NCBI GenBank assembly: GCA_050942925.1
Contig: JBMNOF010000001.1
Coordinates: forward strand, 151,666 to 215,665
Reading direction: 5' to 3'
Length of the DNA: 64,000 bases
Origin: Candidatus Spyradocola sp.
GTDB lineage: Bacteria > Bacillota > Clostridia > Christensenellales > UBA1750
The translations under genes were made by a program, and so were the position numbers. The first letter of the stretch is position 1, and the number at the start of each line of letters is the position of its first letter. Below the pieces are notes generated by a model. The model made no database searches. It saw only the letters and a list, made by a program, of their open reading frames with translations, and was not told where the DNA came from. Positions 2,883 to 52,594 of this stretch are shown here, piece after piece.

Positions 2883-4895
2883 TCACACCCCCAAAATCAG
2901 TCTGCCGATCTGGTAGACCAGGAAGGCCACGATCCAGGCCACGCAGCACTGGGCGAACATGGCCAGCGCCGCATAGCGGGTGCTGCCCAGCTCGCGCCGG
3001 ACCGCGGCGACGGCCGCAAAGCAGGGCATGTACAGCAGCGTGAACGTCAGGAACGAGACGGCGGACAGCGGCGTGAACAGCGAGCCGAGCACCGTGGTCA
3101 GCTGCGCGGTATCCGGCACATTGGTCAGCACCGCGAGGGTCGAGACCACCGCTTCCTTGGCGGAGAGGCCGGTGAGCAGCGCGGTGGAGCTGATCCAGTT
3201 GCCAAAGCCCAGCGGCGCAAAGATCGGGGCGATGAACCGCCCGATGCCCGCAAGCATGCTGTCGCTCTTGTCGCTGACCATCATCAGGCGCGTGTCAAAG
3301 CTCTGCAGGACCCAAATGACGATGGACGCCATAAAGATGATGGTAAAGGCCTTGACCAGGAAGTCCTTGGCCTTCTCCCACATGTGGATGACGACGGACT
3401 TTGCGCTGGGCAGGCGGTAGGCCGGCAGCTCCATGACGAAGGGAACGGGTTTGCCCTTGAAGATCGTGCCCTTGAGCAACAGGCCGTAGAGCACGCCCAC
3501 GACCATGCCCCCGACATACAGTCCGATCATCACCAGCGGCGCGATGTTGGGGAAGAAGGCCGCGGTAAAGGTCGCATAGATGGGCAGCTTGGCCGAGCAG
3601 GACATGAAGGGCGTCAGCAGGATGGTCATGCGGCGGTCGCGGTCGCTGGCCAGCGTGCGCGAGGCCATGATCGCGGGAACGGAGCAGCCAAAGCCGATCA
3701 GCATCGGGACGAACGAGCGCCCGGAGAGCCCGATCTTGCGCAGCAGCTTATCCATGACAAACGCGACGCGCGCCATGTAACCGCTGTCCTCCAGGATGGA
3801 GAGGAAGAAGAACAGCGTCACGATCGTGGGCAGGAACGACAGGACCGAGCCCACGCCCACGCACACGCCGTCGATCAGCAGCGAGTGCACGGCCTCGTTG
3901 ATCCCCAGGGTGGTCAGCCCCTGGTCCAGAAGGCCCGTCAGCGCGTCAATCCCCATGGAGAGCAGGTTGGACAACACCGCGCCGATGACGTTGAACGTCA
4001 GGAAGAACGTCAGCAGCATCACGCACAGGAAGATCGGAATGCCGAAGTACTTGTGCGTGAGCAGGCGGTCGATCTGGATCGAGCGCTGCAGTTCGCGGGA
4101 ATTCCCATTCTTCTTGACCGCGTCCTTGCAGGCGTTCGCGATGAAGTCATAGCGCATGTCCGCGAGCGCGGCCTCGCGGTCCGTGCCCAGGTTCGTCTCC
4201 ATCTCCTGGACGATGTTGTCGATGATCCCCTTTTCGCTCTCGGTCAAGTTCAGCTTGCTGAGCGTGATGGGATCGCCTTCGACCACCTTGGTCGCCGCGT
4301 AGCGGGAGGGGAGCCCCGCCTCCTTAACTTCCTTTTCGATGATGTGCGCGATGGAGTGCACCGCGCGGTGCACCTCGCCCTGGCACAGGTCCAATCCGCG
4401 CGGGCGGTCCTTCTGCTGCGCCGCCTGGATCGTCCTCTGCACGAGCTCCTCGCAGCCCTCGTTCTTCGCCGCGGAAATCGGCACGATGGGCAGGCCCAGG
4501 TTCTTGGAAAGGAGCGGCACATCGATGGAGTCCCCGTTTTGCCGGACCTCGTCCATCATGTTGAGCGCGACCACGACCGGCACCCCGACCTCCATCAGCT
4601 GCAGGGTCAGGTACAGGTTCCGCTCAATGTTCGTGGCGTCCACGATGTTGATGACCGCCTCCGGCTTGTCCACCAGGAGGAAGTCCCTCGTCACGACCTC
4701 CTCGGCCGTGTAGGGAGAAAGAGAATAGATGCCGGGCAGGTCCACCAGCGTCATGTTCTTCTGTCCGAGGATGGCTCCCTCTTTCTTTTCGACCGTCACG
4801 CCCGGAAAGTTGCCCACGTGCTGATTCGAACCCGTGAGCTGATTAAACAACGTGGTCTTTCCCGAGTTGGGGTTGCCAAGCAATGCAATAATCAT
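2883..4895 (-). CDS. feoB: Ferrous iron transporter FeoB
   Basis: 670 aa. The N-terminal G-domain reads MIIALLGNPNSGKTTLFNQLTG...DLPGIYSL, followed by a polytopic membrane domain. Confidence 0.95.
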   Translation of the reverse strand: MIIALLGNPNSGKTTLFNQLTGSNQHVGNFPGVTVEKKEGAILGQKNMTLVDLPGIYSLSPYTAEEVVTRDFLLVDKPEAVINIVDATNIERNLYLTLQLMEVGVPVVVALNMMDEVRQNGDSIDVPLLSKNLGLPIVPISAAKNEGCEELVQRTIQAAQQKDRPRGLDLCQGEVHRAVHSIAHIIEKEVKEAGLPSRYAATKVVEGDPITLSKLNLTESEKGIIDNIVQEMETNLGTDREAALADMRYDFIANACKDAVKKNGNSRELQRSIQIDRLLTHKYFGIPIFLCVMLLTFFLTFNVIGAVLSNLLSMGIDALTGLLDQGLTTLGINEAVHSLLIDGVCVGVGSVLSFLPTIVTLFFFLSILEDSGYMARVAFVMDKLLRKIGLSGRSFVPMLIGFGCSVPAIMASRTLASDRDRRMTILLTPFMSCSAKLPIYATFTAAFFPNIAPLVMIGLYVGGMVVGVLYGLLLKGTIFKGKPVPFVMELPAYRLPSAKSVVIHMWEKAKDFLVKAFTIIFMASIVIWVLQSFDTRLMMVSDKSDSMLAGIGRFIAPIFAPLGFGNWISSTALLTGLSAKEAVVSTLAVLTNVPDTAQLTTVLGSLFTPLSAVSFLTFTLLYMPCFAAVAAVRRELGSTRYAALAMFAQCCVAWIVAFLVYQIGRLILGV

Positions 4896-5315: not shown

Positions 5316-6179
5316 TCAATCTTCCTGAATGCGGAGGAACTCGTAGATCCTCTCGAGGTCCTCGGCCGAACTGTAGTGCAGGACGACCTTTCCGTGCTTG
5401 GCGTTTCCGGTGACGGTCACCTTCGTTCCAAAGCGGCGGCGCGCCGCCTCCTCCACGAGCGCCAGCTCTGCGCAGCGCGGGCGCTCCGGCTTGGGCGCAG
5501 CCGATTCGCGCATGTACTTGACGAGGGATTCCGTCTGGCGAACGTTGAGCCCGCGCTGCACGACCTGGCGAGAGAGGTTGATGATATCCCTCTCGTTCTC
5601 CGCGCCGAGCAGGGCGCGCGCATGTCCTTCGGTGAGGTCTCCAGAGGCAACGTAGTCTGCGACCTCGGACGGGAGGCTGAGCAAGCGTAGGAGGTTGGCG
5701 ACGGCCGACCGGCTTTTGCCGAGACGCTGCGCCACCTGTTCCTGCGTGAGTCCGCACTGCTGCATGAGGGCGTGAATGGCCTGCGCCTCTTCCATGGGAT
5801 TGAGGTCCGTCCTCTGGATGTTCTCGATCAAGGACATCTCCATGCGGCGGATCTCCTCCACGTCGCGGACGATGGCGGGAACTTCGGTCAGCTCTGCCAA
5901 GCGGGCCGCGCGCCAGCGACGCTCGCCAGCGACGATGGTGTACCGCTTGCCGTTCGGGGCAAGGATAATGGGCTGAATGATGCCGACCGAGCGGATTGAC
6001 GCCGCGAGCTGATCCAGCGCTTCGGGCGCAAACTGTTTTCTCGGCTGGTTCTTGGTGGGATCAATGCTCCCAATGGGGATCATCTGCACGTTGTTTTCCT
6101 GGTTTTCCTCCTCGACTTCGGGGATGTCGCTGAAGAGCGCATTGATGCCCTTGCCCAGGCCGCCGCTCGCTTTCGCCAT
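5316..6179 (-). CDS. spo0J: Chromosome partitioning protein ParB/Spo0J
   Basis: MAKASGGLGKGINALF...GERRWRAA...HTH. I prefer the start at the ATG at 6177-6179, with the SD GGAGGAAAG. The track ORF extends to 6194. Confidence 0.9.
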   Translation of the reverse strand: MAKASGGLGKGINALFSDIPEVEEENQENNVQMIPIGSIDPTKNQPRKQFAPEALDQLAASIRSVGIIQPIILAPNGKRYTIVAGERRWRAARLAELTEVPAIVRDVEEIRRMEMSLIENIQRTDLNPMEEAQAIHALMQQCGLTQEQVAQRLGKSRSAVANLLRLLSLPSEVADYVASGDLTEGHARALLGAENERDIINLSRQVVQRGLNVRQTESLVKYMRESAAPKPERPRCAELALVEEAARRRFGTKVTVTGNAKHGKVVLHYSSAEDLERIYEFLRIQED

Positions 6180-8960: not shown

Positions 8961-10828
8961 GACTTTCTCTCCCTTCTCCTCTGTTCCAGTTTAATCATCA
9001 GAACGGCAATATCCCCTGGCGAGACGCCGGAGATCCTCTGCGCGGCGCCAAGCGTTTCCGGGCGAATGCGCTCCAGCTTTTGCTGCGCCTCGATGCGCAG
9101 GCCCTTGATGTCGGCATAGCACAGATCTTGGGGAATCTTGACGTTTTCTGTCCTTTGGAATGCCTCGACCTGGCGGCGCTGGCGCTCCAGATACCCCTCG
9201 TACCGGAGATGAATCTCCGCCTGCTCCGCGACGTTGTCCGGAACGTCCGGGATCGCCGGGTCCATCTGCCGGAGATCGGCGTAGCGCACGCCCGCGCGCC
9301 GGAGCAGATCCGCCGCGGAAATCCCGCTGGAAACGGTCCCCTCCCCCAGGACGCGATTGACCTCCTCTGCGCGCAGATGCGTCTTTGGCAAGAGTTTTAG
9401 GAGATCATATGTTCCCCTTTTCTTTTCCTCCATGCGGGCCAGGCGCTCGTCGGAGGCGAGTCCGGCCTTCCAGCCGATCTCCGTCAGGCGGAGGTCGGCG
9501 TTGTCCTGGCGCAGGAGCAGGCGGTACTCGGCGCGGCTGGTCATCATGCGGTAGGGCTCGTTGGTGCCCTTGCCGGTGAGGTCGTCGACGAGCACGCCGA
9601 TGTAGGCGTCCGCGCGGGAGAGCCGGAGCGGCGGCCGGCCGCTGAGCTTGAGCGCGGCGTTCATGCCGGCGTACAGCCCCTGCGCCGCGGCCTCCTCATA
9701 GCCGGAGGAACCGTTGATCTGCCCGGCAAAGAAGAGGTTCTCCACGCCCTTTGCCTCGAGGGTCGGGCGAAGGAGGGTGGGGTCGATGCAGTCGTATTCA
9801 ATCGCATAGGCCAGGCGCGTGAGCTGCACGTGCTCCAAGCCGGGGATGGAGCGGTAGACGGCCCACTGCACGTCCTCGGGCAGCGAGGAGGACATGCCCT
9901 GCACGTACCACTCGAGCGTGTCCAGCCCCTCGGGCTCCAGGAAGAGGGGGTGGCGCTCCCGGTCGGCAAAGCGGACGACCTTGTCCTCGATGGAGGGGCA
10001 GTACCGCGGCCCGACGCCATGGATGTCGCCGGAGAACAGAGGCGCCCGGTGGAGGTTTTCGCGGATGATGCGGTGGGTTTCCGGGGTGGTGTAGCCGAGG
10101 TAGCAGGAAATCTGCTCCTTTTCCAGGCGATCGTTCAGGAAGGAAAAGGGGACAATGTGCTCGTCGCCGGGCTGCTCCTCGAACTTGGAAAAGTCGACGG
10201 TGCGGCAGTCGATGCGCGCGGGGGTTCCGGTCTTAAAGCGGCGGAGCGGGAAGTCGAGCCGCTCCAGCGCGCCGGAGAGGGCCTTTGCATTGCCCAACCC
10301 GGAGGGGCCGGAGTCGGCGTGCGTCTCGCCCACGATGACGCGGCTCTTGAGGTAGACGCCGGTGGCGACGATGGCCGCCGCGCAAGGGTAGAGCGCGCCG
10401 GTGGTCGTGCGCACGCCGCTGACGCGGCCGCCGGTGGTTTCGATGGCCTCGACCTCGCCCTGGCGGAGGGTCAAGCGGTCCTGGTGCTGCAGGGCATGCA
10501 GCATGCGCCGCTGGTACTGCTTTTTATCGGCCTGGGCGCGCAGGGAGTGCACGGCCGGGCCTTTGCCCGTGTTGAGCATGCGGGACTGAAGAAACGTGTC
10601 GTCGATGGCGCGGCCCATCTCCCCGCCCAGGGCGTCGATCTCGCGGACGAGGTGGCCCTTTGCCGTGCCCCCGATGGAGGGATTGCAGGGCATGAGCGCG
10701 ACGCCGTCCATGTTGAGGGTGAGCAGGAGGGTCTTGTGCCCCATGCGGGCGCAGGCGAGCGCGGCCTCGCAGCCGGCGTGCCCTGCGCCCACCACGACGA
10801 CCTCATAGCTTTCCAAGGTAAACGACAT
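8957..10828 (-). CDS. mnmG: tRNA uridine-5-carboxymethylaminomethyl synthesis enzyme MnmG (GidA)
   Basis: MSFTLESYEVVVVGAGHAGCEAALACARMG... The start is taken at the ATG at 10826-10828, with the SD GTGAGGA. The track ORF starts 11 codons earlier, inside mnmE. Confidence 0.95.
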   Translation of the reverse strand: MSFTLESYEVVVVGAGHAGCEAALACARMGHKTLLLTLNMDGVALMPCNPSIGGTAKGHLVREIDALGGEMGRAIDDTFLQSRMLNTGKGPAVHSLRAQADKKQYQRRMLHALQHQDRLTLRQGEVEAIETTGGRVSGVRTTTGALYPCAAAIVATGVYLKSRVIVGETHADSGPSGLGNAKALSGALERLDFPLRRFKTGTPARIDCRTVDFSKFEEQPGDEHIVPFSFLNDRLEKEQISCYLGYTTPETHRIIRENLHRAPLFSGDIHGVGPRYCPSIEDKVVRFADRERHPLFLEPEGLDTLEWYVQGMSSSLPEDVQWAVYRSIPGLEHVQLTRLAYAIEYDCIDPTLLRPTLEAKGVENLFFAGQINGSSGYEEAAAQGLYAGMNAALKLSGRPPLRLSRADAYIGVLVDDLTGKGTNEPYRMMTSRAEYRLLLRQDNADLRLTEIGWKAGLASDERLARMEEKKRGTYDLLKLLPKTHLRAEEVNRVLGEGTVSSGISAADLLRRAGVRYADLRQMDPAIPDVPDNVAEQAEIHLRYEGYLERQRRQVEAFQRTENVKIPQDLCYADIKGLRIEAQQKLERIRPETLGAAQRISGVSPGDIAVLMIKLEQRRRERKS

Positions 10829-14104: not shown

Positions 14105-14457
14105 GCTTTCCCTTTTTCGCCCGTCCCCTGCGTCTTGTAGAGGTGCTGGCGCGTCAAAAGGTTATCCACGCTTCGCTCCATGCGGTGAAAGTCCGCCTCC
14201 ACCGCGCCGGAGCGCGCGATCCATACATAATAGCCGCACTTGAGGTGCGGAATCTTCGGGCGGATGCTCTCGCGCAGCAAGCGCTTGATGTGGTTGCGCT
14301 GCACCGCGCCGCCCAACTTTTTGCTCACGGAAAAGCCGATGCGCAGCTTGCCCTGCCGCACAAACAGCAAAACCAGCTCGCGGTTTGCCTGGGATTTTCC
14401 ACGGCGATAGACGAACTGGAACGCGCTGTTTTCCTTGAGCGAGTACACTCGTTTCAC
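14101..14457 (-). CDS. rnpA: RNase P protein component
   Basis: [32 protein letters not shown]...[13 protein letters not shown] 14455-14457 is chosen because the track ORF (to 14619) would overlap rpmH. The alignment to B. subtilis RnpA begins here. Confidence 0.8.
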
Positions 14458-14491
14458 GAAACGTCTCTGCACCGGGGGCCGACCCACCGAT

Positions 14492-14520
14492 GCAAAAGCC
14501 TTTGCCGCCGGGGCAAAAGG
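14492..14520 (-). terminator. Weak terminator or attenuator between rpmH and rnpA
   Basis: On the minus strand: CCTTTTGCCccggcGGCAAAGG followed by CTTTTGC. Confidence 0.4.
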
Positions 14521-14575
14521 CGCGGCAGCACGCTGTCCGCGCCGGATACAACTTCCCCCGAGCGCTCCGCTCTCT

Positions 14576-14710
14576 TTAGGCGGAGAGAACCTTGCGGCCC
14601 TTGGCGCGGCGGCGGGCAAGCACCTTGCGACCGTTCTTGGTCTTCATGCGGGCACGGAAGCCGTGCACCTTGGCGCGCTGACGCTTCTTGGGCTGGAACG
14701 TCATCCACAT
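14576..14710 (-). CDS. rpmH: 50S ribosomal protein L34
   Basis: Too short for the track. My translation is [44 protein letters not shown] (44 aa). Confidence 0.9.
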
Positions 14711-15145
14711 CTGTCTTCACACCCCTTATCCATAAAATGAAAACACTGCTCTACCTACAAAACAGCGATTGTATTATAAGGCTTCTCTCTCTTTTCTGTC
14801 AAGCAAAGTCTGAACTTTTTACATCCTTTCGGGCAGTCTCCGGGCGGAATTCGTCAAATTGAATGAATTCCAAAGGCAATTCCGTGAAAAAGAATCAAAG
14901 TGTCGGATAAACCAAAAACTGTGGATAACTTTGTGAAAAAGCATTGCATCCAGGGGATTTTTTTGTTATGATGACTTGTGTGTCCCCATGGAGAGGATGC
15001 GATCACAGTTTCGTTATCCACAAACTGTGGATAACCTTGTGGATATTCTTTCAAAATACTGTGCATATCGACCTGGGATTTCCACATCCAACGGGTCGAG
15101 CGGAACGGTGTTTCCGTTTTGTGCCGCTTTTTAGGAGGAGAACCT
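14711..15145. other. oriC: oriC part 1: rpmH-dnaA intergenic DnaA-box cluster plus the dnaA promoter region
   Basis: Perfect boxes TGTGGATAA 14920-14928, TTATCCACA 15014-15022 and TGTGGATAA 15026-15034. One-mismatch box TGTGGATAT 15038-15046. AT-rich tract 14736-14790. The gene strand switches here. Confidence 0.75.
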
Positions 15146-16477
15146 GTGGACAACCCAAGCGCAAAGGAGATCTGGGACAAAGCCTCCCAGCTCATCAAGT
15201 CCGAGATCAACGGCATTTCGTATGACTCTTGGTTCAAGGACATCGTGCCTGTTTCCTTTGACGGCCAGGTCCTGACGTTGCTTGTGAACATCGAATTCAT
15301 CCGCAACATGCTGCGCAACAATTACGACCAGCTCATCCAGGCGGCGCTGATGCAGGCGGCCGGGGAGCCGATTCGCTACGTTGTGCGCATTCCCTCGGAG
15401 ATGAACGCGCCCAGGGGGGAGGCGCCCGCGCGCCCGAACGCCGTGGCCTCCATGCTCAATCCCAAGTACACCTTCTCCACCTACGTCATCGGCAAGTCCA
15501 ACAACTTTGCGCATGCGGCCGCCTATGCCGTCTCGCAAAGCCCGGGCGATACGTATAACCCCCTCTTCCTCTATTCCGGAGTGGGGCTTGGAAAGACGCA
15601 CCTCATGCACGCCATCGGCCACGCTATATTGGAAAAGAATCCGCAGGCGCGCATTCTCTACATCACTTCCGAAACGTTTACCAACGATTTGATCAACGCC
15701 ATCTCCTCCAACACCAACAGCGAGTTCCGCAACCGCTACCGCAACGTGGACGTGCTGATGGTGGACGATATCCAGTTCATCGCCGGCAAGGAACAGACGC
15801 AGGAAGAGTTCTTCCACACCTTCAACGCCCTCTACGAGGCGCGCAAGCAGATCGTCATTTCCTCCGATAAGCCGCCCAAGGACATTCCCACACTCGAGGA
15901 GCGCCTTCGCTCCCGGTTTGAGTGGGGCTTGATCGCGGACATCTCCAAGCCGGATTTGGAAACGCGCATCGCCATTTTGCGCAAAAAGGCGGAGCTGGAA
16001 AACCTGGACGTGCCGGACGAGGTCAACGCCTACATCGCCTCCAAGGTCGAGAGCAACATCCGAGAGCTCGAAGGATGCCTGACGCGCGTGCTGGCCTATG
16101 CCAAGGCCAACGGCGGCGGCGCGCCCGTGACCGAGGCCCTGGCCGCGGAAGCCCTGCGGGACATGCTGCCCGTCAAGGACCCCCGGCGCATCACCACCGA
16201 CCTCATCATGGCCATCGTCGCGGAATACTACTCGGTCTCTGTCGAGGACCTCAAGTCCAAGCGCCGGAACCGGGAGATCACCGTCCCCCGCCAGATCGCC
16301 ATGTACCTCACCCGCGAGCTCAACGGCGCGTCGCTTCCGCGCATCGGCCTGGAGTTTGGCGGCCGGGACCACACCACCGTCATCCACGCCTGCGACAAGG
16401 TCGCCGAGGACATCAAGCGCGACGCGGCGCTCAAGGGCACGATCGAAACGCTCAAGAAGCGCATTCAGGGCGCGTAA
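15146..16477 (+). CDS. dnaA: Chromosomal replication initiator DnaA
   Basis: GTG start with the SD TAGGAGGAG. Contains GVGLGKTHLMHAIG, the Walker A motif, and a C-terminal box-binding domain (RNREITVPRQIAMYLTRELNGASLPRIG). Confidence 0.95.
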   Translation: MDNPSAKEIWDKASQLIKSEINGISYDSWFKDIVPVSFDGQVLTLLVNIEFIRNMLRNNYDQLIQAALMQAAGEPIRYVVRIPSEMNAPRGEAPARPNAVASMLNPKYTFSTYVIGKSNNFAHAAAYAVSQSPGDTYNPLFLYSGVGLGKTHLMHAIGHAILEKNPQARILYITSETFTNDLINAISSNTNSEFRNRYRNVDVLMVDDIQFIAGKEQTQEEFFHTFNALYEARKQIVISSDKPPKDIPTLEERLRSRFEWGLIADISKPDLETRIAILRKKAELENLDVPDEVNAYIASKVESNIRELEGCLTRVLAYAKANGGGAPVTEALAAEALRDMLPVKDPRRITTDLIMAIVAEYYSVSVEDLKSKRRNREITVPRQIAMYLTRELNGASLPRIGLEFGGRDHTTVIHACDKVAEDIKRDAALKGTIETLKKRIQGA

Positions 16478-16527
16478 CGCGGAAAGAGAGAAAAGCGCCT
16501 GTTTCCTGAAACGGAGGGTTGGAAAAA

Positions 16528-17631
16528 ATGAAATTCATTTGTCAGAAAGAGGACCTGATGCAGGGCCTTTCCGTGGCCTCCAAGGCCAGCGCCACGCGTT
16601 CGCCGCAGGCCGTGCTGGAGTGCGTGTCCATCGCGGCGGATCTTTCCGGCGTGCGGCTGCAGTGCACGGACCTGCAAATGGGCATTGAAACGACGCTCCC
16701 GGCCATGGTCGCCGAGGAAGGGCGCGTGCTGCTCAACGCGCGCCTGCTCAACGAAATCGTGCGCAAGCTCCCCGACGGCGAGGTCACCCTCTCCGTCAGC
16801 GGCTCCAACCGCGCCACGATCAGCGCCGCAGGCTCCAAGACGACGCTGCAGGGCATGTCCGCGCAGGACTTCCCGCAGCTGCCCGCCGTGCCGGAGGACG
16901 ACCCCATCGAACTTCCCCAGGTCCTTCTGCGCGACATGATCCGCGAGACGGGCTTTGCCGTGGCCGCGGACGACGCGCGCCCGATCCTGATGGGCATCTA
17001 CCTGGAGGTAGAGGACGACGTTTTGACGCTCGTCGCGCTGGATGGCTTCCGACTTGCCCGCAGAAAGGGCAAGCTCCTCTCCCCCGCGGGCAAGGTTTCG
17101 GCCGTGGTCTCGGGGCATTACCTGATTGAGGCGGGCAAGATTTTGGGCGACGACGACGCGCCGGTGACGCTGGCGCTGTCCAAGACGCACCTGCTCCTTC
17201 GCACATCGGGCTTTACGGTCATCATCCGCCTGCTGGAGGGCGAGTACATTAAGTACCGCCAGCTCTTGCCGCCGAGCTACGCCATCTCCACCCGCGTCTC
17301 CCGCGGGGAGCTTGCGGATTGCATCGACCGCGCGTCCCTCATGGCGCGCGAGGGCAAGAACAACCTCCTTCGCTTCTCGATCCGCCAGGACAAGCTCTCT
17401 ATCACCTCGAATTCCGAGATGGGCGACGTCTACGAGGAAATGGAGGTCCAGACCACGGGCAACGACATCGACATCGCCTTCAACGTCCGCTACATCACGG
17501 ACGCGGTCAAGTCCATCGACGAGGAGCAGTTCCTCATCAAGCTCAACTCGAACATCTCGCCCTGCGTCCTGGTTCCCACCGAGGGCGAGGATTTCCTCTA
17601 CCTGGTGCTGCCGGTCCGCACGGCGGGCTAG
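16528..17631 (+). CDS. dnaN: DNA polymerase III beta sliding clamp
   Basis: MKFICQKEDLMQGLSV... 367 aa. Only 50 nt after the dnaA stop. Confidence 0.95.
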   Translation: MKFICQKEDLMQGLSVASKASATRSPQAVLECVSIAADLSGVRLQCTDLQMGIETTLPAMVAEEGRVLLNARLLNEIVRKLPDGEVTLSVSGSNRATISAAGSKTTLQGMSAQDFPQLPAVPEDDPIELPQVLLRDMIRETGFAVAADDARPILMGIYLEVEDDVLTLVALDGFRLARRKGKLLSPAGKVSAVVSGHYLIEAGKILGDDDAPVTLALSKTHLLLRTSGFTVIIRLLEGEYIKYRQLLPPSYAISTRVSRGELADCIDRASLMAREGKNNLLRFSIRQDKLSITSNSEMGDVYEEMEVQTTGNDIDIAFNVRYITDAVKSIDEEQFLIKLNSNISPCVLVPTEGEDFLYLVLPVRTAG

Positions 17632-17717: not shown

Positions 17718-18794
17718 ATGCGCATCACAAAGCTGACGCTGACGAATTTTCGGAATTACGCGTATTGCGAGTTTGCGCCGGAGGACGGGATCAACCTGAT
17801 CGTGGGCGAGAACGCGCAGGGAAAGACCAACCTTTTGGAGGCCGTGTTCTTCTGCTGCTTTGGGCGCTCGCACCGGACGAGCCGGGAAAAGGACCTCATC
17901 GCCTACGACGAGGAGATCGCGCGCATTCGCCTGGAAAGCGTGCGCACCGAGACCGCGCACGACTTGCGCGTGCGCCTCTCCCGCCAGGAGGGCCGGAAAA
18001 TCCACGTCGACGGTGCGCCCCTTTCCCGCATCGGGGAATTGATGGGCCTGCTCAACTGCGTGCTGTTCGCGCCGGAACACCTTTCCATCGTCAAGGACGG
18101 ACCCGCTGAGCGGCGCCGGTTCCTGGACATGGAGCTCTCCCAAACCTATCCCGCCTACTTCTTCCTCCTGCAGCAGTACATGCGCGCCCTCCGGCAGCGC
18201 AATACCCTGCTGCGCTCCCTCCGGGAGCAGCCCGAGCTCCGCGCGACGCTCCCGGTTTGGGACCAGCAGCTCGCCTCGCTCGGCAGCAAGATCACCCGCT
18301 ATCGAGAGAGCTTCTGCGCGCGCCTTTCCGGCCTTGCGTCCGAAAACCACCGGGACATCAGCGGCGGCCGCGAATCCCTGGTTGTATCCTACCGCCCGGA
18401 CTGTGAGGCGAACGACGAAACGTCTCTCCTGCGCGCCCTGGAAGCCGCACGCGCGGAGGACCTGCGCCGCTGCACCACAACGCGCGGCATCCACCGCGAC
18501 GAAATGGCCTTGACGCTCGACGGCCGCGAGATCCGCGCCTTTGGCTCGCAGGGCCAGCAGCGCACCGCCGCCCTCGCCCTCAAGCTCTCCGAGCTGGACC
18601 TCATTCGCCAGGAGACCGGCGAGTGGCCCATCCTCATGCTCGACGACGTGATGAGCGAATTGGACGACCGCCGCCAGCGCTACCTTTTGGAGCGCATCCT
18701 CCCCGTCCAAACCCTGGTCACCGCGACCGCACAGGACGTCTCCTGGCCCAGCGCCCGACGTTTCGTCGTGCGGCAGGGCCAAATTGTGGAATAG
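17718..18794 (+). CDS. recF: DNA replication and repair protein RecF
   Basis: MRITKLTLTNFRNYAYCEF...GENAQGKTNLLEA. ATG at 17718 with the SD GGGAGGAAAG. Confidence 0.95.
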   Translation: MRITKLTLTNFRNYAYCEFAPEDGINLIVGENAQGKTNLLEAVFFCCFGRSHRTSREKDLIAYDEEIARIRLESVRTETAHDLRVRLSRQEGRKIHVDGAPLSRIGELMGLLNCVLFAPEHLSIVKDGPAERRRFLDMELSQTYPAYFFLLQQYMRALRQRNTLLRSLREQPELRATLPVWDQQLASLGSKITRYRESFCARLSGLASENHRDISGGRESLVVSYRPDCEANDETSLLRALEAARAEDLRRCTTTRGIHRDEMALTLDGREIRAFGSQGQQRTAALALKLSELDLIRQETGEWPILMLDDVMSELDDRRQRYLLERILPVQTLVTATAQDVSWPSARRFVVRQGQIVE

Positions 18795-18804
18795 GAAAAG
18801 AAAA

Positions 18805-18838
18805 CACCCCGCCGGAATCCCGGCGGGGTGATGCTTTC
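18805..18838 (+). terminator. recF terminator
   Basis: CACCCCGCCGG-aatc-CCGGCGGGGTG followed by atgCTTTCT. Confidence 0.6.
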
Positions 18839-19198
18839 TACAGGTGAAGAAGTTCACCTGCCCAAAATAAGAGAGATATGCGAACTGCCGCAGACGCAGA
18901 ACCTTGACTCTAAGGAGGAGAAAATGAGACGTTGGGTTTTTACGAGCGCACAACCCGCTGATGAAGTGCGCCCGGCGCTGCGTGACAAGGAAAGATGTCA
19001 TCATCCGTGAAAGGCTTTTCTTTGCTTTTCACTCCTTTATCTTACACAATGAGACCCATTTTGACAATAGAGAAACCATCAAGAGACGGTTAAAGAAAAT
19101 CAAACAATCTATGAAGCGTTTTTGACGGACGGCGACGCCCCTTCCGGACGCCGTTTTGTGCGCGGCGAAACGGTAGGAAAGAAACAGCAGTTGTAGGG

Positions 19199-19640
19199 TA
19201 TAGAGAGTAGACGTAGTCGTAGTAGAGCGGTGGATTTTGTGGAAAACCTCGTTTTGTCCGATGTTCTCCGGTTTTTTGGGCTCGCGTTCGCTGTGGAAGT
19301 CCGGCTCGCCGATCCACATTTTGGCGCGTTTCTCCACAACCGGCCCTCCCCTGGGACCTCGGACGGCCACGCTTCTGTGGAGAAATTTTTTGCCGATGGG
19401 AAAACTTCCCATCTGGAAACGCAAATATTTACGGTTTTGTATAATTATGCAGCGTATGCACGACCATGCAGCAAAATTTTCCACAGAATGCAAGGGGTGT
19501 GGAAGAATTTCAACAGAAGTTATCCACAGGCGGAGGGAGGACCAAAAAGCTTCCGGTTCTGCCGTTGTTTTCCGGGCGGCGGCAAAAAAGATTGCACTTC
19601 TGTATGACTTATCCCCAAACTGTGCAGAGATTGTGGATAA
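19199..19640. other. Second DnaA-box cluster (candidate oriC part 2) with a DnaA-trio-like array
   Basis: Perfect boxes at 19520-19528 and 19632-19640. One-mismatch boxes at 19238, 19330, 19376, 19477 and 19609. Weaker boxes at 19229, 19292, 19310 and 19498. Trio-like array at 19205-19225. Confidence 0.6.
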
Positions 19641-19942
19641 CTCGTTTTGTGCGGAGAGACGGCGCGGCGCGCGCGCCTATGCAGGGAAGGTGCGGCGAAC
19701 GTTGTTCTGAATTGACGTGCCGGGACCGGGAGCGGGCTCTGGCGAGTGGAATGGCGGGGAAGCGAAAAAAGAAAGGGGTCCCTCCCTCTTTTCCAAACGG
19801 GGAAAGTGGTGTATAATGGCCTTGAGCAACGAACTTCCCCTTCTGCGCGGTTTTTTGCGCGCAGAACCGGCATTTCGGAGAGAAGGCCGCGGGAACCTTG
19901 CCGGCACATTGTGTCCGGTTGATGATAAAGGAGGAAGAGACC

Positions 19943-20962
19943 ATGACAAAGATCCTGACCGGCGGACCCTTGCCCAACATCCCCTGGGAGGAAAAGCCCG
20001 CCTCCGTCGTCAACGCTCCCGTCTGGCGCTTCAGCGGCAACCCCGTCATCGACCGCAATCCCGTAAAGGGCGTGGCGCGCATCTTCAACAGCGCGGTGGC
20101 GCCCTTTGGCGATGGATTTGTCGCGGTGCTGCGTGGAGAGCAGGTCAATGGCATCCCGCACATCTACATGGGCCGTTCGGACGACGGCATCCATTGGCAG
20201 ATCGATGCGGAAAAGATCCCCTTTGTGGATGAGGAAGGCAAGCCCTTCCTGCCGGGCTATGCCTACGACCCGCGCCTTGTCAAGGTGGAGGACACCTACT
20301 ACATCCTGTGGTGCACGGACTTCTACGGCGCGGCCATCGGCCTGGCGCGCACGAAGGACTTCAAGACCTTTGTGCGCATGGAAAACCCCTTCATTCCCTT
20401 TAACCGCAACGCGGTGCTCTTCCCGCGCAAGGTCAACGGAAAGTACCTACTGCTCTCGCGGCCGTCGGACAGCGGGCACACGCCCTTTGGCGACATCTTC
20501 CTCTCCGAATCGCCGGACATGATCTACTGGGGCCGGCACCGCCACGTCATGAGCCGCGGCTCGGAGTGGTGGCAGTCGCTGAAAGTGGGCGGCGGCGCGG
20601 CGCCGATCGAGACGGACGAGGGGTGGCTGCTGTTCTACCACGGCGTGTCCAGCACGTGCAACGGCTACGTCTACTCCGTGGGCGGGGCGATTCTGGACAT
20701 CGACCGGCCCTCCATCGTCAAGTACCGCTGCGAGAATTTCCTGCTCACGCCCGAGGCGCCCTATGAGGAGCGCGGGTTCGTGCCCAACGTCTGTTTCCCC
20801 TGCGCCACGCTGCAGGACACCGAAACCGGGCGCATCGCCATCTACTATGGCGCGGCGGACTCGGTGGTGGGCCTGGCGTTTACGCAGGTGGACGAGATCG
20901 TCTCCTACATCAAGGAGCACAGCAAACTCACGGAGACCGATACGGAAATCGGCATCCGTTAA
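19943..20962 (+). CDS. GH130 family beta-mannoside phosphorylase (shorter, about 340-aa type)
   Basis: MTKILTGGPLPNIPWEEKP...FNSAVAPFGDGFVAVLRGE...YDPRLVKVEDTYYILWC...GWLLFYHGV. SD AAAGGAGGAAG. Confidence 0.85.
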   Translation: MTKILTGGPLPNIPWEEKPASVVNAPVWRFSGNPVIDRNPVKGVARIFNSAVAPFGDGFVAVLRGEQVNGIPHIYMGRSDDGIHWQIDAEKIPFVDEEGKPFLPGYAYDPRLVKVEDTYYILWCTDFYGAAIGLARTKDFKTFVRMENPFIPFNRNAVLFPRKVNGKYLLLSRPSDSGHTPFGDIFLSESPDMIYWGRHRHVMSRGSEWWQSLKVGGGAAPIETDEGWLLFYHGVSSTCNGYVYSVGGAILDIDRPSIVKYRCENFLLTPEAPYEERGFVPNVCFPCATLQDTETGRIAIYYGAADSVVGLAFTQVDEIVSYIKEHSKLTETDTEIGIR

Positions 20963-48508: not shown

Positions 48509-51500
48509 CTAGGGGTAGAGCACGTAGTCGAGCATGACGCGGGCAAAGCCCGCGCGCTCCAGAGCCTGCGCCGCCTCCGTCGGATAGGTGCGGATGCAAA
48601 GCCGGTCCAAACCGGGGAAGATGCGGTGCGACGCAAAGTCGCGCGCCAAAGCGGCCAGCGCCTTGTCCGCGGCCTCCGGCTCCGGCAGGCGCAGAACCTC
48701 GCCCTGGCGCTCCAAAATGGCGGCCACGCGCCCCTCCAGCAGGCAGACCGCCGTGCCGGGCACGCGCGCAAACTCCCGCCCCGGCGCGTGCGCGAGCGCG
48801 CGCCCGTAGGCTTGGCCCGGGTCCGCGGCGGGAACCCAAAGCGCCGCCGGGGAAGGATGGTCCAAGGCCCGTCGCACGCGGGCATAGTCCTGCGCGCGGA
48901 CGAACTGCATGCCCGAAAGCCCCTGCACAAAGTACCCCCGGCGTGCTTGGCCCGTGTACTCCCACTGGCGAAGCGGTTCCGCCGCCTCCGCCCAGGAAAG
49001 ACCGCTCAGCGTCTCCCGGCAGAGCACCGGGCACGCGGAAAAGGCGCGGTCCAGCCGCTCCTCCACGGAGAGCGCCCGCTCCGGTCGCGCCAGCTCCCAG
49101 CGCCCGGCGGAGAGGGCGTCCGCGCGCACCCGCGCCAGGCGCTTCCCCGCAAGCCGCCCCGCCTGCGTTGCCGGCAGCGCGCGCACCGGCGCAAAGCTGT
49201 CCGCGCGCACGAGCCCCGCCTGAAGGAGGCGCAGCAGGGGCTCCCATGCGGATTGACCGCCAAGAACCGCCGAGAGCGCGCTGGAGAAGCTCGCCCCGCG
49301 ACGGCGCAGCGCGTCCAGCAGCCGCGCCTCCGCCTCTGAGGGAACAAAGCCCTCCTCCGCCTCTGGCTCGGCATCCCAGTCCACGTCCTGCGCCCGGAAA
49401 AAGGCCAGGGAGTCCCCGCGCATCGTCCAGCTGAATTCCCCGGCGCCCAGCAGCGCATCCAGCAGCGCCGGCCGGTAGTTCGGCACGCGCGCGGGCAGAA
49501 GCATCCCCTCCCAGGCGGACGCGGGGTGGAACTGGCCCAGCAACTCCTCCAGCGCCGCACGAAGCTGCGCCGGCTGGGCGCCGGCCGGGCGGAGAGACGC
49601 GGCGAGCAGGGCCGCAAAGCGCTCCGGCGGGACGGTCGACACGGCCTCCCGGCGCGCGCGCAGCGTCTCCTTCTGCGCGCGGGTGAACACGTCCCGGTGC
49701 ACGAATTCTCCCCCGTGCGCAACGGCCACGCCCTGTGCCGCCAGCGCCTCCAGCGCGCGCTGCGCCGCGGCCTCGGAAACGCCGTAGCGCTGGGCGAGCC
49801 GCGCCGCGTCCTGCCCGCCCCGGTAGCGCAGACTGCGCCGCGCCGCAAGGCGGAGCGGCCCTTCGTCTCCGCCCCGAAGGGCCGCGTAGAGCGCCTCGGA
49901 CTCCGCCGCAATCCAGAGCCCCGGCTCGATGTACCGCGCGCGCCCCTGATCGGACAGGCGGTAAAACCACGCCTGCGGCACCTCCAGTTCTCCCGGCGCG
50001 AGGTCGCCCTCGATCAGGAGCCGCTCGTGGAGCTGGTCCGGGTTTTCCGGCGGGCGCAGCGCGTATTGGGCAGCAAGGGCCGCCTCCTCCGGCTCGATGC
50101 CCGCCTGCGCATCGAGCGCCTGCGCCGCCTGTTCCGCGGCGCGCACGGCGGACGAGGGCACGTTGTCCGTTTCGTACAGGAGCTTGTTCTCCGCCGCACG
50201 GCGCATGGGCAGCGCCATGGGAGAGGGCGCGGACAGGTGCATCTCCCGCACCTCGATCTCCCCGCAGGCCACGCCCGCCAGCACCTCCTGCAGAGCGGCA
50301 AGGTCCAGATTGTCCTGCTCGCACGCCCGCAGCGCCTCGCGGATCAGGGGATGCTCCGCCTCTTGCACAAGGGCGGAGAGCTGTTCCTCCCCGCGCAGGC
50401 GCTGTACCCACAGCGGCTGCCGGTGCCCGCCCCGCACGCCCATCATCAGCGCGCAGGCGCAGGCGTAGCGGAAGTTCAGGGAAAGCAGCGGGCTGCCCGG
50501 CAGAAGCGCGCGCACGCGCTGGCCAGACGTTTCCGGGTCCAACCCCTGCAATAGCCCCTCCGGCAGCTCGGTGCCGCCCAGGGCGTACAGAAGGAACCCG
50601 TCGTCGTCCTCAAAGGCCAGAACGTCCTGACCGGTCTGCTGTTCCGCCGCCCGGCGGCAGAGCAGGGAGAGCGCGTAGTTTACGCGGCGGCCAAAGATCG
50701 AGTGCACCATGAGCTGGTGCTTGTTCGTCTCGTCCAGGAAGTGCTCGCAGACGATGCGGCGGTGCGTCGGCAGACAGCCCGTGGCGTCCAGCTGCGCGCG
50801 CACGTGGCGGGCGGCGTTGGCGGCCGCATCCCCGTCCATGCAGAGCGCGGCAAGGGCCGGACCGATCTCCCCCGATTGCGCCGCGCGCTCGACCCTCTCC
50901 AGACAGGCGCCAAAGCGTTGGGCCACCGGATAGGCGCGGCCCGTGCCGTCGCCCCGCCAGAATGGGGGCTGCGCGCCCTCGGGGGAGGTCTTGGTCACCA
51001 CCACGCGGTCCCGGCCGATCTCGGCGATCTTCCAGGCAAACGCCCCGAGCAGGAACTTGTCCCCGATGCGCGCCTCGTAAACGAATTCCTCGTCCAGTTC
51101 GCCCAGGCGCGTGCCGTCCGGCAGAACCGCCGCGTACCAGCCCCGGTCCGGGATCGTCCCCGAGGCGCTGTAGGCCAGCATTTTCGTGTATTCGTCGCCG
51201 CGAACGCACCCGTGGATGCGGTCGTACAGAACGCGCGCCCGCACCGGGCGGTCCTGCGCATGCTCGTGGTCGCCGGCGAGCATGGATAGGCAGGCGCAGA
51301 CGTCCTCCCGCGTCGTGTTGCGGAAGGTCCAGCACCCGTGGACGATGCGCAGGGCGTCGTCCACGCTGTATTCGTCCTCCACGGCCATGGAAACCAGGTG
51401 CTGCGCGAGCACGTCCAAGCAGTTTTCCGGCGGCTCCGCCGGCTCGATCTCCCCCTCCTGCGCGGCGCGCGCGGTCAGCCCGCAGGCCAGGGCGTCGGCC

Positions 51501-52594
51501 GCCGTCTTGGCAAAGACGCGCATCACGCTCACCGCGCCGGGACGGTGACCCGCCCGGCCCATGCGCTGCAGGGCGCCCGAGACCGTGCGCGGACAGCCGA
51601 TCTGCACGACCAGGTCCACCTGCCCCACGTCGATCCCCAGCTCCATGGACGAGGTCGCGCAAAGCAGGCGCAGCTTTCCCTCGCGCAGCTGCTGTTCCGC
51701 CTCCAGGCGCTGTTCCCGGGAGACGCAGCCGTGGTGCGTGCGCGCAAATCCCGGCCCGGCCAGCTGGTTGACGCCGTGGGCCAGGCGCTCGGCCTGCTGC
51801 CGGCCCTCCACAAAGGCGAGCACCGTGCGCGCCCCTTGGCAAAGCTCGTATACGCGCTGGCACAGGTCCGGCCAAACCGTGCCCTGCACCAGCCGCAGGT
51901 CCGGCAGCGGGGAGGTCACCCGGATGTCCGTGTCCTTGGTAAGCGCGGGCGCGACGATGGCGCACGGCGACGGATGCGCCAGGTACCGCGCCGCGCGCTC
52001 CAGCGGCCGGATCGTGGCCGACAGCCCGATGCGCTGCACGCGCCGGCCGCAGAGCTCGTCCAGCCGCGCCAGCGAGAGCAGCAGGTGCGCCCCGCGCTTG
52101 GAGCCGATCAGCGCGTGCAGTTCGTCCACGATCACGGCCTGAACCGTGCGCAGCATGGCCCGGCTGCGCGGCGCGGTCAGCAGCAGGTAGAGCGACTCCG
52201 GCGTGGTCAGAAGGATGTGCGGGGGCTTGCGCAGCATTTTGGCGCGGTCCGCGGGCGTCGTGTCGCCCGTGCGCAGGCCCGTGCGCAGCACCGGCCCGGG
52301 GATGCCCTCGTTGGGCCGCTGCAGGTTCTCGCGGATGTCCCCGGCCAGGGACTTGAGCGGCGAGACGTAGAGCACGCGCACCTCGTCCGCGAGCTTCCCC
52401 TGCGCCGCCTCCGCCTTGAGCCGGTCCAGAAAGAGCAGGAAGGCCGTCAGCGTCTTGCCCGTGCCCGTCGGCGCGCTGATGAGCACGTTCTCCCCCGCCG
52501 CGATGTGCGGCCAGCCCTCCCGCTGCACGGCCGTCGGCTCCCCGACGCGCGCGCGGAACCAATCCCGTGCCGATGCGGAAAACAGCTCCGTCAT
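48509..52594 (-). CDS. lhr: Lhr-family large DEAD/DEAH-box helicase
   Basis: 1361 aa. Contains FRARVGEPTAVQREGWPHIAAGENVLISAPTGTGKTL, DELH and CATSSMELGIDVG. Confidence 0.9.
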   Translation of the reverse strand: MTELFSASARDWFRARVGEPTAVQREGWPHIAAGENVLISAPTGTGKTLTAFLLFLDRLKAEAAQGKLADEVRVLYVSPLKSLAGDIRENLQRPNEGIPGPVLRTGLRTGDTTPADRAKMLRKPPHILLTTPESLYLLLTAPRSRAMLRTVQAVIVDELHALIGSKRGAHLLLSLARLDELCGRRVQRIGLSATIRPLERAARYLAHPSPCAIVAPALTKDTDIRVTSPLPDLRLVQGTVWPDLCQRVYELCQGARTVLAFVEGRQQAERLAHGVNQLAGPGFARTHHGCVSREQRLEAEQQLREGKLRLLCATSSMELGIDVGQVDLVVQIGCPRTVSGALQRMGRAGHRPGAVSVMRVFAKTAADALACGLTARAAQEGEIEPAEPPENCLDVLAQHLVSMAVEDEYSVDDALRIVHGCWTFRNTTREDVCACLSMLAGDHEHAQDRPVRARVLYDRIHGCVRGDEYTKMLAYSASGTIPDRGWYAAVLPDGTRLGELDEEFVYEARIGDKFLLGAFAWKIAEIGRDRVVVTKTSPEGAQPPFWRGDGTGRAYPVAQRFGACLERVERAAQSGEIGPALAALCMDGDAAANAARHVRAQLDATGCLPTHRRIVCEHFLDETNKHQLMVHSIFGRRVNYALSLLCRRAAEQQTGQDVLAFEDDDGFLLYALGGTELPEGLLQGLDPETSGQRVRALLPGSPLLSLNFRYACACALMMGVRGGHRQPLWVQRLRGEEQLSALVQEAEHPLIREALRACEQDNLDLAALQEVLAGVACGEIEVREMHLSAPSPMALPMRRAAENKLLYETDNVPSSAVRAAEQAAQALDAQAGIEPEEAALAAQYALRPPENPDQLHERLLIEGDLAPGELEVPQAWFYRLSDQGRARYIEPGLWIAAESEALYAALRGGDEGPLRLAARRSLRYRGGQDAARLAQRYGVSEAAAQRALEALAAQGVAVAHGGEFVHRDVFTRAQKETLRARREAVSTVPPERFAALLAASLRPAGAQPAQLRAALEELLGQFHPASAWEGMLLPARVPNYRPALLDALLGAGEFSWTMRGDSLAFFRAQDVDWDAEPEAEEGFVPSEAEARLLDALRRRGASFSSALSAVLGGQSAWEPLLRLLQAGLVRADSFAPVRALPATQAGRLAGKRLARVRADALSAGRWELARPERALSVEERLDRAFSACPVLCRETLSGLSWAEAAEPLRQWEYTGQARRGYFVQGLSGMQFVRAQDYARVRRALDHPSPAALWVPAADPGQAYGRALAHAPGREFARVPGTAVCLLEGRVAAILERQGEVLRLPEPEAADKALAALARDFASHRIFPGLDRLCIRTYPTEAAQALERAGFARVMLDYVLYP

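Follow-up and report, generated by a model that had tools for sequence, protein, structure and literature searches.

A conserved cluster of DnaA boxes downstream of recF is a probable displaced unwinding module of the replication origin in Candidatus Spyradocola

The window analysed here, a 64,000-nucleotide stretch of a Candidatus Spyradocola contig from an organism close to Candidatus Spyradocola merdavium (Christensenellales), contains a classical replication-origin neighbourhood. On the minus strand lie mnmG, mnmE, jag, yidC, yidD, rnpA and rpmH; gene orientation flips at the boundary between rpmH and dnaA, and dnaA, dnaN and recF follow on the plus strand, then a gap of 1.15 kb and two GH130 genes. 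This report concerns a cluster of DnaA boxes within that gap and its probable role in the replication origin (oriC). A sequence-only reading of the same DNA had drawn attention to the gap and to two peculiarities of its surroundings, both of which our analysis bears out: the dnaA-dnaN spacer spans just 50 nt and a box scan found no DnaA box in it, and gyrB-gyrA are missing from the window, as tblastn with GyrB and GyrA gave no match in the 64 kb. The plus-strand genes and the features between them are:

15146-16477, plus strand: dnaA, GTG start, Pfam domains Bac_DnaA, Bac_DnaA_C and DnaA_N
16478-16527: dnaA-dnaN spacer, 50 nt, zero DnaA boxes
16528-17631, plus strand: dnaN, with three Pfam DNA_pol3_beta domains
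17718-18794, plus strand: recF, identified by Pfam SMC_N and AAA_23, by its translation and by homologues named RecF
18805-18830, plus strand: intrinsic-terminator-like hairpin of recF

We scanned the whole window for TTATCCACA with at most one mismatch. This returned 24 boxes in 64 kb. Comparison with shuffled sequence, a check that the sequence-only reading had proposed, gave 4.13 ± 1.88 boxes in dinucleotide-preserving shuffles, with a maximum of 9, and none of 100 such shuffles attained 24. At 14162-15153 there are nine boxes, of which six belong to the rpmH-dnaA spacer, one lies in rnpA, one in rpmH and one spans the dnaA start; a further seven occupy 19238-19640, and the remaining eight are dispersed. 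There are two separate clusters, at 14726-15153 and 19229-19640, with 3.65 kb of dnaA-dnaN-recF between them. The seven boxes downstream of recF fall within 403 bp, where about 0.03 would be expected. All boxes named in the sequence-only reading were recovered on rescanning, both the perfect boxes at 19520-19528 (plus strand) and 19632-19640 (minus strand), whose coordinates proved exact, and the one-mismatch boxes at 19238, 19330, 19376, 19477 and 19609. The elements of the recF-downstream cluster are:

19205-19225, minus strand: DnaA-trio-like array, CTA CTA CGA CTA CGT CTA CTC
19226-19228, minus strand: GCT, a GC-type spacer separating box pair from trios
19229-19237, minus strand: trio-proximal degenerate box AAATCCACC, 3 mismatches
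19238-19246, minus strand: upstream DnaA box TTTTCCACA, 1 mismatch, ending 12 nt before the first trio
19292-19384: conserved box-like sites, namely TGTGGAAGT at 19292-19300 (minus), CGATCCACA at 19310-19318 (plus), TTCTCCACA at 19330-19338 (plus) and TGTGGAGAA at 19376-19384 (minus)
19423-19452: the 30 bp of lowest stability in the gap, within the box cluster, overlapping a TATAAT-like hexamer and the first TATGCA
19477-19640, right-hand boxes, first three: TTTTCCACA at 19477 (plus), TGTGGAAGA at 19498 (minus) and perfect TTATCCACA at 19520 (plus)
19477-19640, right-hand boxes, other three: TTATCCCCA at 19609 (plus), TGTGCAGAG at 19621 (minus) and perfect TGTGGATAA at 19632 (minus)

At its recF-proximal end the cluster carries a tandem box pair that runs into a 3-nt-periodic array. 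Read along the minus strand from 19246 to 19205, the sequence is TTTTCCACA-AAATCCACC-GCT-CTA-CTA-CGA-CTA-CGT-CTA-CTC, exactly as the sequence-only reading had given it, with four of seven triplets of CTA type; five of the seven trios have a central A. The plus strand, predicted to be the strand bound by DnaA, reads GAG TAG ACG TAG TCG TAG TAG, and directly beside the trios, on the recF side, lies a short ATA-rich patch that is conserved. In the scheme published for finding the basal unwinding system (BUS), a DnaA box may carry up to two mismatches and may be followed by a second box with up to four; no fewer than three NAN trios in a row must then lie within 16 bp, and box-to-trio spacings peak at 10-13 bp (PMC8287927). 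Here the first box, TTTTCCACA, departs from TTATCCACA at one position and stands 12 nt from the trios, inside both the 16-bp limit and the published peak; the second box, AAATCCACC, has three mismatches; and all six aligned relatives share with the window a box-proximal trio of 3'-GAT-5' (CTA/TAG). The B. subtilis-like layout proposed from the sequence alone therefore stands for the box pair, the spacing and the first trio and fails for the run of three consecutive NAN trios, since trio 3 is CGA.

A strict scan for this arrangement (box with at most two mismatches, spacer of at most 16, at least three consecutive NTN including at least two CTA/TTA) gave zero matches in the whole window, and a graded score was used instead, counting CTA/TTA triplets within 16 nt of each of the 129 boxes in the window with at most two mismatches. 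The site at 19246 was the sole top scorer, with four of seven CTA/TTA triplets against two for the runner-up, and none of 30 block shuffles attained four.

The sequence-only reading had staked its proposal on conservation in relatives. We examined contigs encoding RecF homologues at graded identity levels:

RecF identity 93%, loci L081-84: downstream gene GH130
RecF identity 80%, loci L085-87: downstream gene GH25/LysM
RecF identity 76%, locus L092: downstream gene GH130
RecF identity 72%, loci L088, L089 and L097: downstream gene DUF951

A further locus with fragmented gene calls, L093 (97% DnaA identity), has the layout of the 93% loci. The window's species recurs across many gut metagenomes: its RecF cluster counts 164 member sequences, spread over 128 indexed blocks of the assembly collection, on contigs as long as 200-290 kb. 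Boxes and trios are kept 3' of recF at all four identity levels. In every one of these relatives the dnaA-dnaN gap is box-free, the top box-plus-trio candidate is on the minus strand 3' of recF, and six to seven one-mismatch boxes lie downstream of recF, with the exception of L097, which has four. Neither the rpmH-dnaA spacer nor the dnaA-dnaN gap yielded a box-plus-trio candidate in the clade members examined. The post-recF position is fixed in at least five species-level lineages. Synteny with the relatives stops near 19700. Because the downstream gene differs among relatives, the cluster does not belong to the promoter of any one gene.

Within the cluster, conservation follows the predicted elements. 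A footprint test on six aligned sequences found 51% of the columns in boxes and trios invariant, compared to 3% of those in between (Fisher p = 6e-31): the 9-mers and the trio block are conserved, whereas the intervening spacers have diverged (~57% column identity) and vary in length through indels. The box pair with its 3-nt-periodic array is the best-conserved block of the cluster. In six species-level relatives, eight of 21 trio-array columns are invariant; trios 1 and 4 are TAG in every aligned sequence, and the upstream box at 19238-19246 keeps seven of nine columns invariant. Two of the 72% relatives satisfy the strict trio rule, L088 with TAG-TAA-AAG-TAG and L097 with TAG-CAG-TAC-TAG-CAG.

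Two relatives have long dnaA-dnaN gaps, which we considered as origin relics and rejected; they are filled by repeat elements, and are therefore insertions. The 415-nt gap of L088 is occupied (L088:4432-4794) by a repeat resembling a miniature inverted-repeat transposable element, with three to four direct GTGAAAT repeats at one end and four ATTTCAC at the other. In L097 this element lies between dnaN and recF (5786-5986) and at one more intergenic site (10291-10503), and the box-free dnaA-dnaN gap (4321-4680) contains two tandem GC-rich units of ~100 nt and (GAAAACT)x4 directly before dnaN.

As canonical comparators we took 80 loci around RecF homologues among the matches listed, from species-representative genomes with RecF identity of at most 52%, and placed DnaA, DnaN, RecF and GyrB in them by tblastn. 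Loci with linked dnaA-dnaN-recF came from Lachnospiraceae, Clostridium, Alkaliphilus, Alkalibacillus and others. Their dnaA-dnaN gap measures 177-546 nt and contains DnaA boxes in nearly all cases, and in most of them it holds the top box-plus-trio candidate, on the dnaA-sense strand (for example TTATCCACA-AATTCACAGCCC-CTA-TTA-CTA); the region downstream of recF has zero to three boxes. Among tandem-box matches in the dnaA-dnaN gaps of canonical Clostridia and Bacilli the commonest spacer is 12 nt, equal to that of the window, and the position of the GCT spacer matches GCCC, GCAC or GCA of comparator loci. CTA-CTA-CGA variants also occur in canonical gaps (L049, L063, L065).

We then derived from the module a 32-nt degenerate pattern, CGTAGNNGNANTAGNNCNGTGNANNNTGTGGA, and ran it on a metagenome collection, where it matched nine contigs. 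Four belong to the same clade and carry the match 3' of recF. Four others come from unrelated taxa with GC of 0.36-0.63 and carry it in dnaA-dnaN or dnaN-upstream gaps in canonical orientation; one of these canonical dnaA-dnaN gaps (L101) reads TAG-TAG-ACG-TAG-TCG, the same alternating form as in the window. The ninth match lies in a dense box cluster whose context is unassigned. In a side observation, an unrelated metagenome contig (L102:100-430) has 10 DnaA boxes in 300 bp, five of them perfect, and a trio array TAG-TAG-AAG-TAG-TCG-TAG at the contig end, with dnaA, dnaN and recF not nearby.

Two contigs of Christensenellaceae metagenome-assembled genomes, L091 and L094 (RecF identity 54-56%), have a box-free dnaA-dnaN gap of 56 nt and keep gyrB-gyrA after recF. 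Their 420-nt recF-gyrB gap shares on the plus strand the sequence TTTTCCACT-CTTTTCACA-GCA-CTA-CTC-CTT-CGA-CTA-CTG, whose trios satisfy the strict three-NAN rule in both contigs:

L091:6990-7045 and L094:3077-3125, plus strand: box-box-GCA-trio block

Because these contigs carry a plus-strand module, at least two lineages have an unwinding-type module 3' of recF, and the two orientations are opposite: that of L091 and L094 faces gyrB, whereas that of the window clade is inverted, with its trio or unwinding end toward recF. A single-inversion scenario for the inverted position was sought, and none could be derived. In both contigs mnmE has been relocated to downstream of gyrA. Other Christensenellales with recF unlinked from dnaA had no box cluster beside recF, and two loci with RecF identity of 59-61%, L090 (900-1360) and L096 (whole locus), had no consensus boxes in rpmH-dnaA, in dnaA-dnaN or 3' of recF; their origin may lie elsewhere, or a divergent box may be used.

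The gap itself was described in the sequence-only reading as visibly lower in GC and without a convincing open reading frame (ORF). Both descriptions were borne out: GC is 0.52 in 19001-20000 compared to ~0.62 elsewhere in the window, and Pfam searches of six ORFs within the gap gave nothing above noise. Nor did we find the structured RNA or gene that could have accounted for the region in another way. Rfam gave no match either in E-value mode on 13.5-20.5 kb or in gathering mode on the whole window, and a structured RNA at the module was rejected after RNAalifold on five relatives, which pairs only inverted DnaA boxes with one another, with an unfavourable covariation term of +1.08. Beyond the recF terminator, a strong Shine-Dalgarno-like AAGGAGGAG precedes a 28-codon ORF (18925-19009; whole feature 18912-19009). 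We rejected this ORF as a gene; it is probably non-coding, because its frame is not preserved in a 93% relative. In a separate part of the window, a block of 71-75% GC, compared to ~62% for the window, contains a minus-strand gene (48509-52594) for an Lhr-type helicase of 1361 aa with domains DEAD, Helicase_C, DEAD_assoc and WH_Lhr.

An AT-rich stretch at about 19020-19115 had been proposed as the unwinding region. The stretch is real and among the least stable of the window, but it is present in the window and the 93% relatives and missing from the 80% relatives (the L085 lineage), in which only ~140 bp separate the recF end, with its stop codon and terminator, from the trios. This stretch is unlikely to be the element essential for unwinding. 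The AT-rich stretch and the right boundary of the gap are placed as follows:

19016-19115: AT-rich stretch, ranking 6th in instability among the 100-bp windows of the 64 kb
19790-19817, plus strand: promoter-like TTTCCA-16-TATAAT for the GH130 genes, at the right boundary and outside the module

Other motifs of the gap are recorded here as observations. TATGCA occurs three times (19446-19451, 19455-19460 and 19678-19683) among 11 copies on both strands of the 64 kb, and ATGCAG-type repeats are kept in four relatives; the motif could be a binding site of another origin protein or a piece of an internal promoter. A promoter-like TTGTCA-17-TAAGAT (19067-19039, minus strand) in the AT-rich stretch is directed antisense into recF and toward the flank of the trios. 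Between the TATAAT-like GH130 promoter and the start codon lies a leader hairpin, CTGCGCG-GTTTTTTG-CGCGCAG (19843-19864), which is unconserved in a 93% relative.

The left cluster is organized around two divergent promoters:

14710-15145: rpmH-dnaA spacer with the left box cluster, boxes at 14726 (plus), 14920 (minus), 15014 (plus), 15026 (minus), 15038 (minus) and 15145 (minus)
14802-14773, minus strand: rpmH promoter, TTGACA-18-TATAAT
14944-14972, plus strand: dnaA promoter, TTGCAT-17-TATGAT, divergent from the rpmH promoter

The three perfect boxes noted earlier in this spacer were found at 14920, 15014 and 15026. One box stands just 5' of the dnaA promoter and three stand 3' of it. Boxes and promoter hexamers are kept in six relatives, and the three perfect boxes, which are closely packed, show no variation in 6/6. 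As a sequence layout this certainly fits autoregulation of dnaA.

Of the systems described previously, the incC/BUS region of B. subtilis (PMC8287927, PMC6669920) is the closest in form: a tandem box pair points toward a 3-nt-periodic 3'-GAT-5' array, with a GC triplet between, 12 nt from the upstream box to trio 1 and additional boxes beyond the pair. The form recurs in Alkalibacillus (L062) and in the majority of the Clostridia loci examined. Unlike the B. subtilis region, the window module lies 3' of recF rather than between dnaA and dnaN and is inverted relative to dnaA, with its unwinding end toward the dnaA-side cluster; its trios 3 and 5 are NCG, and no long AT-rich block abuts the trios. 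In C. difficile and other clostridia, oriC1 lies in the rpmH-dnaA spacer and oriC2, with the unwinding site, between dnaA and dnaN, a layout reported to be conserved across the clostridia examined (PMC7561715). The window likewise has two clusters in an rnpA-rpmH-dnaA-dnaN neighbourhood, with the trio-bearing cluster distal to rpmH, whereas the oriC2 position is empty and the module lies two genes farther on.

As a putative split origin, the window also resembles gene-spaced ones, such as oriC1-dnaA-oriC2 of H. pylori and the engineered bipartite and bilateral origins of E. coli (PMC4285127, PMC13643167). Bipartite origins have two clusters flanking the dnaA gene within a total of at most ~2 kb (PMC4285127, PMC13643167), whereas here the intervening segment is dnaA-dnaN-recF, at 3.65 kb. 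DnaA clusters can cooperate through looping, and relocated clusters still allow helicase loading (PMC13643167). Because the module is inverted, the predicted unwinding site of the window clade lies between two clusters 4 kb apart, as in a bilateral origin. Our literature search found no described origin downstream of recF; DoriC predictions were outside that search, and the gap would probably be picked up by a scan of the Ori-Finder type.

GC skew runs opposite to what is usual in Firmicutes. Coding strands are rich in C, with a GC content of ~0.85-0.9 at third codon positions, and cumulative skew therefore reaches its maximum near 14 kb and declines through the plus-strand genes. Skew tracks the coding strand and is a poor origin locator here. 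The module lies 2.7 kb from the dnaA stop codon, near the orientation switch between rpmH and dnaA, where local skew is dominated by coding bias.

We conclude that 19205-19640 is probably the part of oriC at which DnaA-dependent unwinding takes place, moved away from the dnaA-dnaN spacer; judged by comparison of sequences, it most likely corresponds in function to incC of B. subtilis and oriC2 of C. difficile. Its sequence elements, their geometry, their conservation and their distribution in the clade are observed directly, and from them we infer DnaA binding, unwinding and cooperation of the recF-downstream module with the rpmH-dnaA cluster. In the mechanism we envisage, DnaA-ATP would occupy about 12 conserved boxes, and the tandem pair at 19229-19246 would direct a DnaA filament onto the plus-strand TAG-rich trios at 19205-19225; the duplex would open at the trios and the adjacent AT patch, and helicase would then be loaded. 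The rpmH-dnaA cluster, 3.65 kb off, would at least autoregulate dnaA and might in addition act as the far half of a split origin, with dnaA-dnaN-recF looped out. Only tentatively do we suggest that bipartite halves act across dnaA-dnaN-recF (~3.7 kb), with an unwinding half that tolerates either orientation (gyrB-facing or recF-facing) and with the initiator operon looped out.

Several points weigh against the displaced-module interpretation. The window array, with only two consecutive central-A trios before CGA, breaks the strict (NAN) x 3 rule, as does that of L085. The AT-rich block, 90-190 bp away from the trios, is unconserved, and the rpmH-dnaA spacer is similarly unstable (its 100-bp window ranks 7th against 6th) and richer in perfect boxes, making it possible that unwinding takes place there. 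Four of the 14 elements in the footprint test (19292, 19310, 19498 and 19621) were partly picked from the alignment itself, and local GC skew, dominated by coding-strand bias, cannot resolve the origin to within 4 kb. The bipartite reading has a weak point of its own: the rpmH-dnaA cluster could serve autoregulation alone, leaving the recF-downstream cluster as a continuous origin.

This last arrangement, in which the recF-downstream module is the complete oriC, relocated rather than bipartite, and the rpmH-dnaA boxes act only in autoregulation of the dnaA and rpmH promoters, strikes us as somewhat doubtful. It would account for a module equipped with about 12 conserved boxes of its own, the box pair, trios and AT patches, and for a left cluster that wraps a conserved TTGCAT-17-TATGAT dnaA promoter in the classical autoregulatory layout; yet the dnaA-upstream cluster aids origin function in B. 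subtilis-type bacteria and in C. difficile (PMC7561715, PMC4285127). The invariance of the three perfect left boxes in 6/6 relatives is compatible with either role. A continuous origin downstream of recF is a sub-case of the displaced module that we favour rather than a contradiction of it. The main rival is that the cluster is a DnaA-binding locus for titration or regulation, with initiation in the rpmH-dnaA spacer or elsewhere. Non-origin DnaA-box clusters include the DBCs (DnaA-box clusters) of B. subtilis and datA and DARS of E. coli. Like these and P. aeruginosa oriCII, the window cluster is a conserved group of boxes near, rather than at, the classical origin position. Some conserved clusters outside the active origin regulate neighbouring promoters (PMC13438810). 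The failure of the strict trio rule and the larger number of perfect boxes and AT-rich window of like instability in the rpmH-dnaA spacer fit such a role, which we nonetheless consider improbable. The best-conserved block of the cluster is a box pair with a canonically spaced trio array, a geometry that titration does not need and with which the known non-origin clusters have not been described; no alternative box-plus-trio site exists in rpmH-dnaA or dnaA-dnaN of clade members; the neighbouring gene varies (GH130, GH25/LysM, DUF951); and the 32-nt pattern otherwise matches four dnaA-dnaN or dnaN-upstream gaps and the one dense cluster of unassigned context.

Chance, or a functionless relic such as a decaying ancestral origin half or a box region of a mobile element, would be in keeping with a right flank that is a rearrangement hotspot and with the degeneracy of some boxes. 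This explanation is strongly disfavoured, and we rate it very improbable, given site-specific conservation amid spacers of ~57% column identity with indels, a post-recF position constant in at least five species-level lineages, and box enrichment far above shuffles.

Firmicute origins are usually described as conserved, the rpmH-dnaA spacer holding oriC1 and the dnaA-dnaN spacer holding oriC2, where unwinding occurs. As far as sequence can indicate, the locus described here is most likely a positional variant of this two-part origin: a recognisable module, inverted and two genes beyond the usual site. If initiation here is confirmed, it would widen the natural range of spacer length and orientation in split origins, a range recently probed only with engineered E. 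coli origins (PMC13643167). Alternating-NCG trio arrays could then be used to probe how strict DnaA-trio recognition is, and the post-recF position would supply an annotation rule for origins in uncultured high-GC gut Clostridia with coding-biased skew. Initiation at this site would also place transcription of dnaA-dnaN-recF (~4 kb) head-on to the leftward fork. If the split reading is true, the clade would represent a natural experiment in which origin halves are freer in position and orientation than the known dnaA-only spacers.

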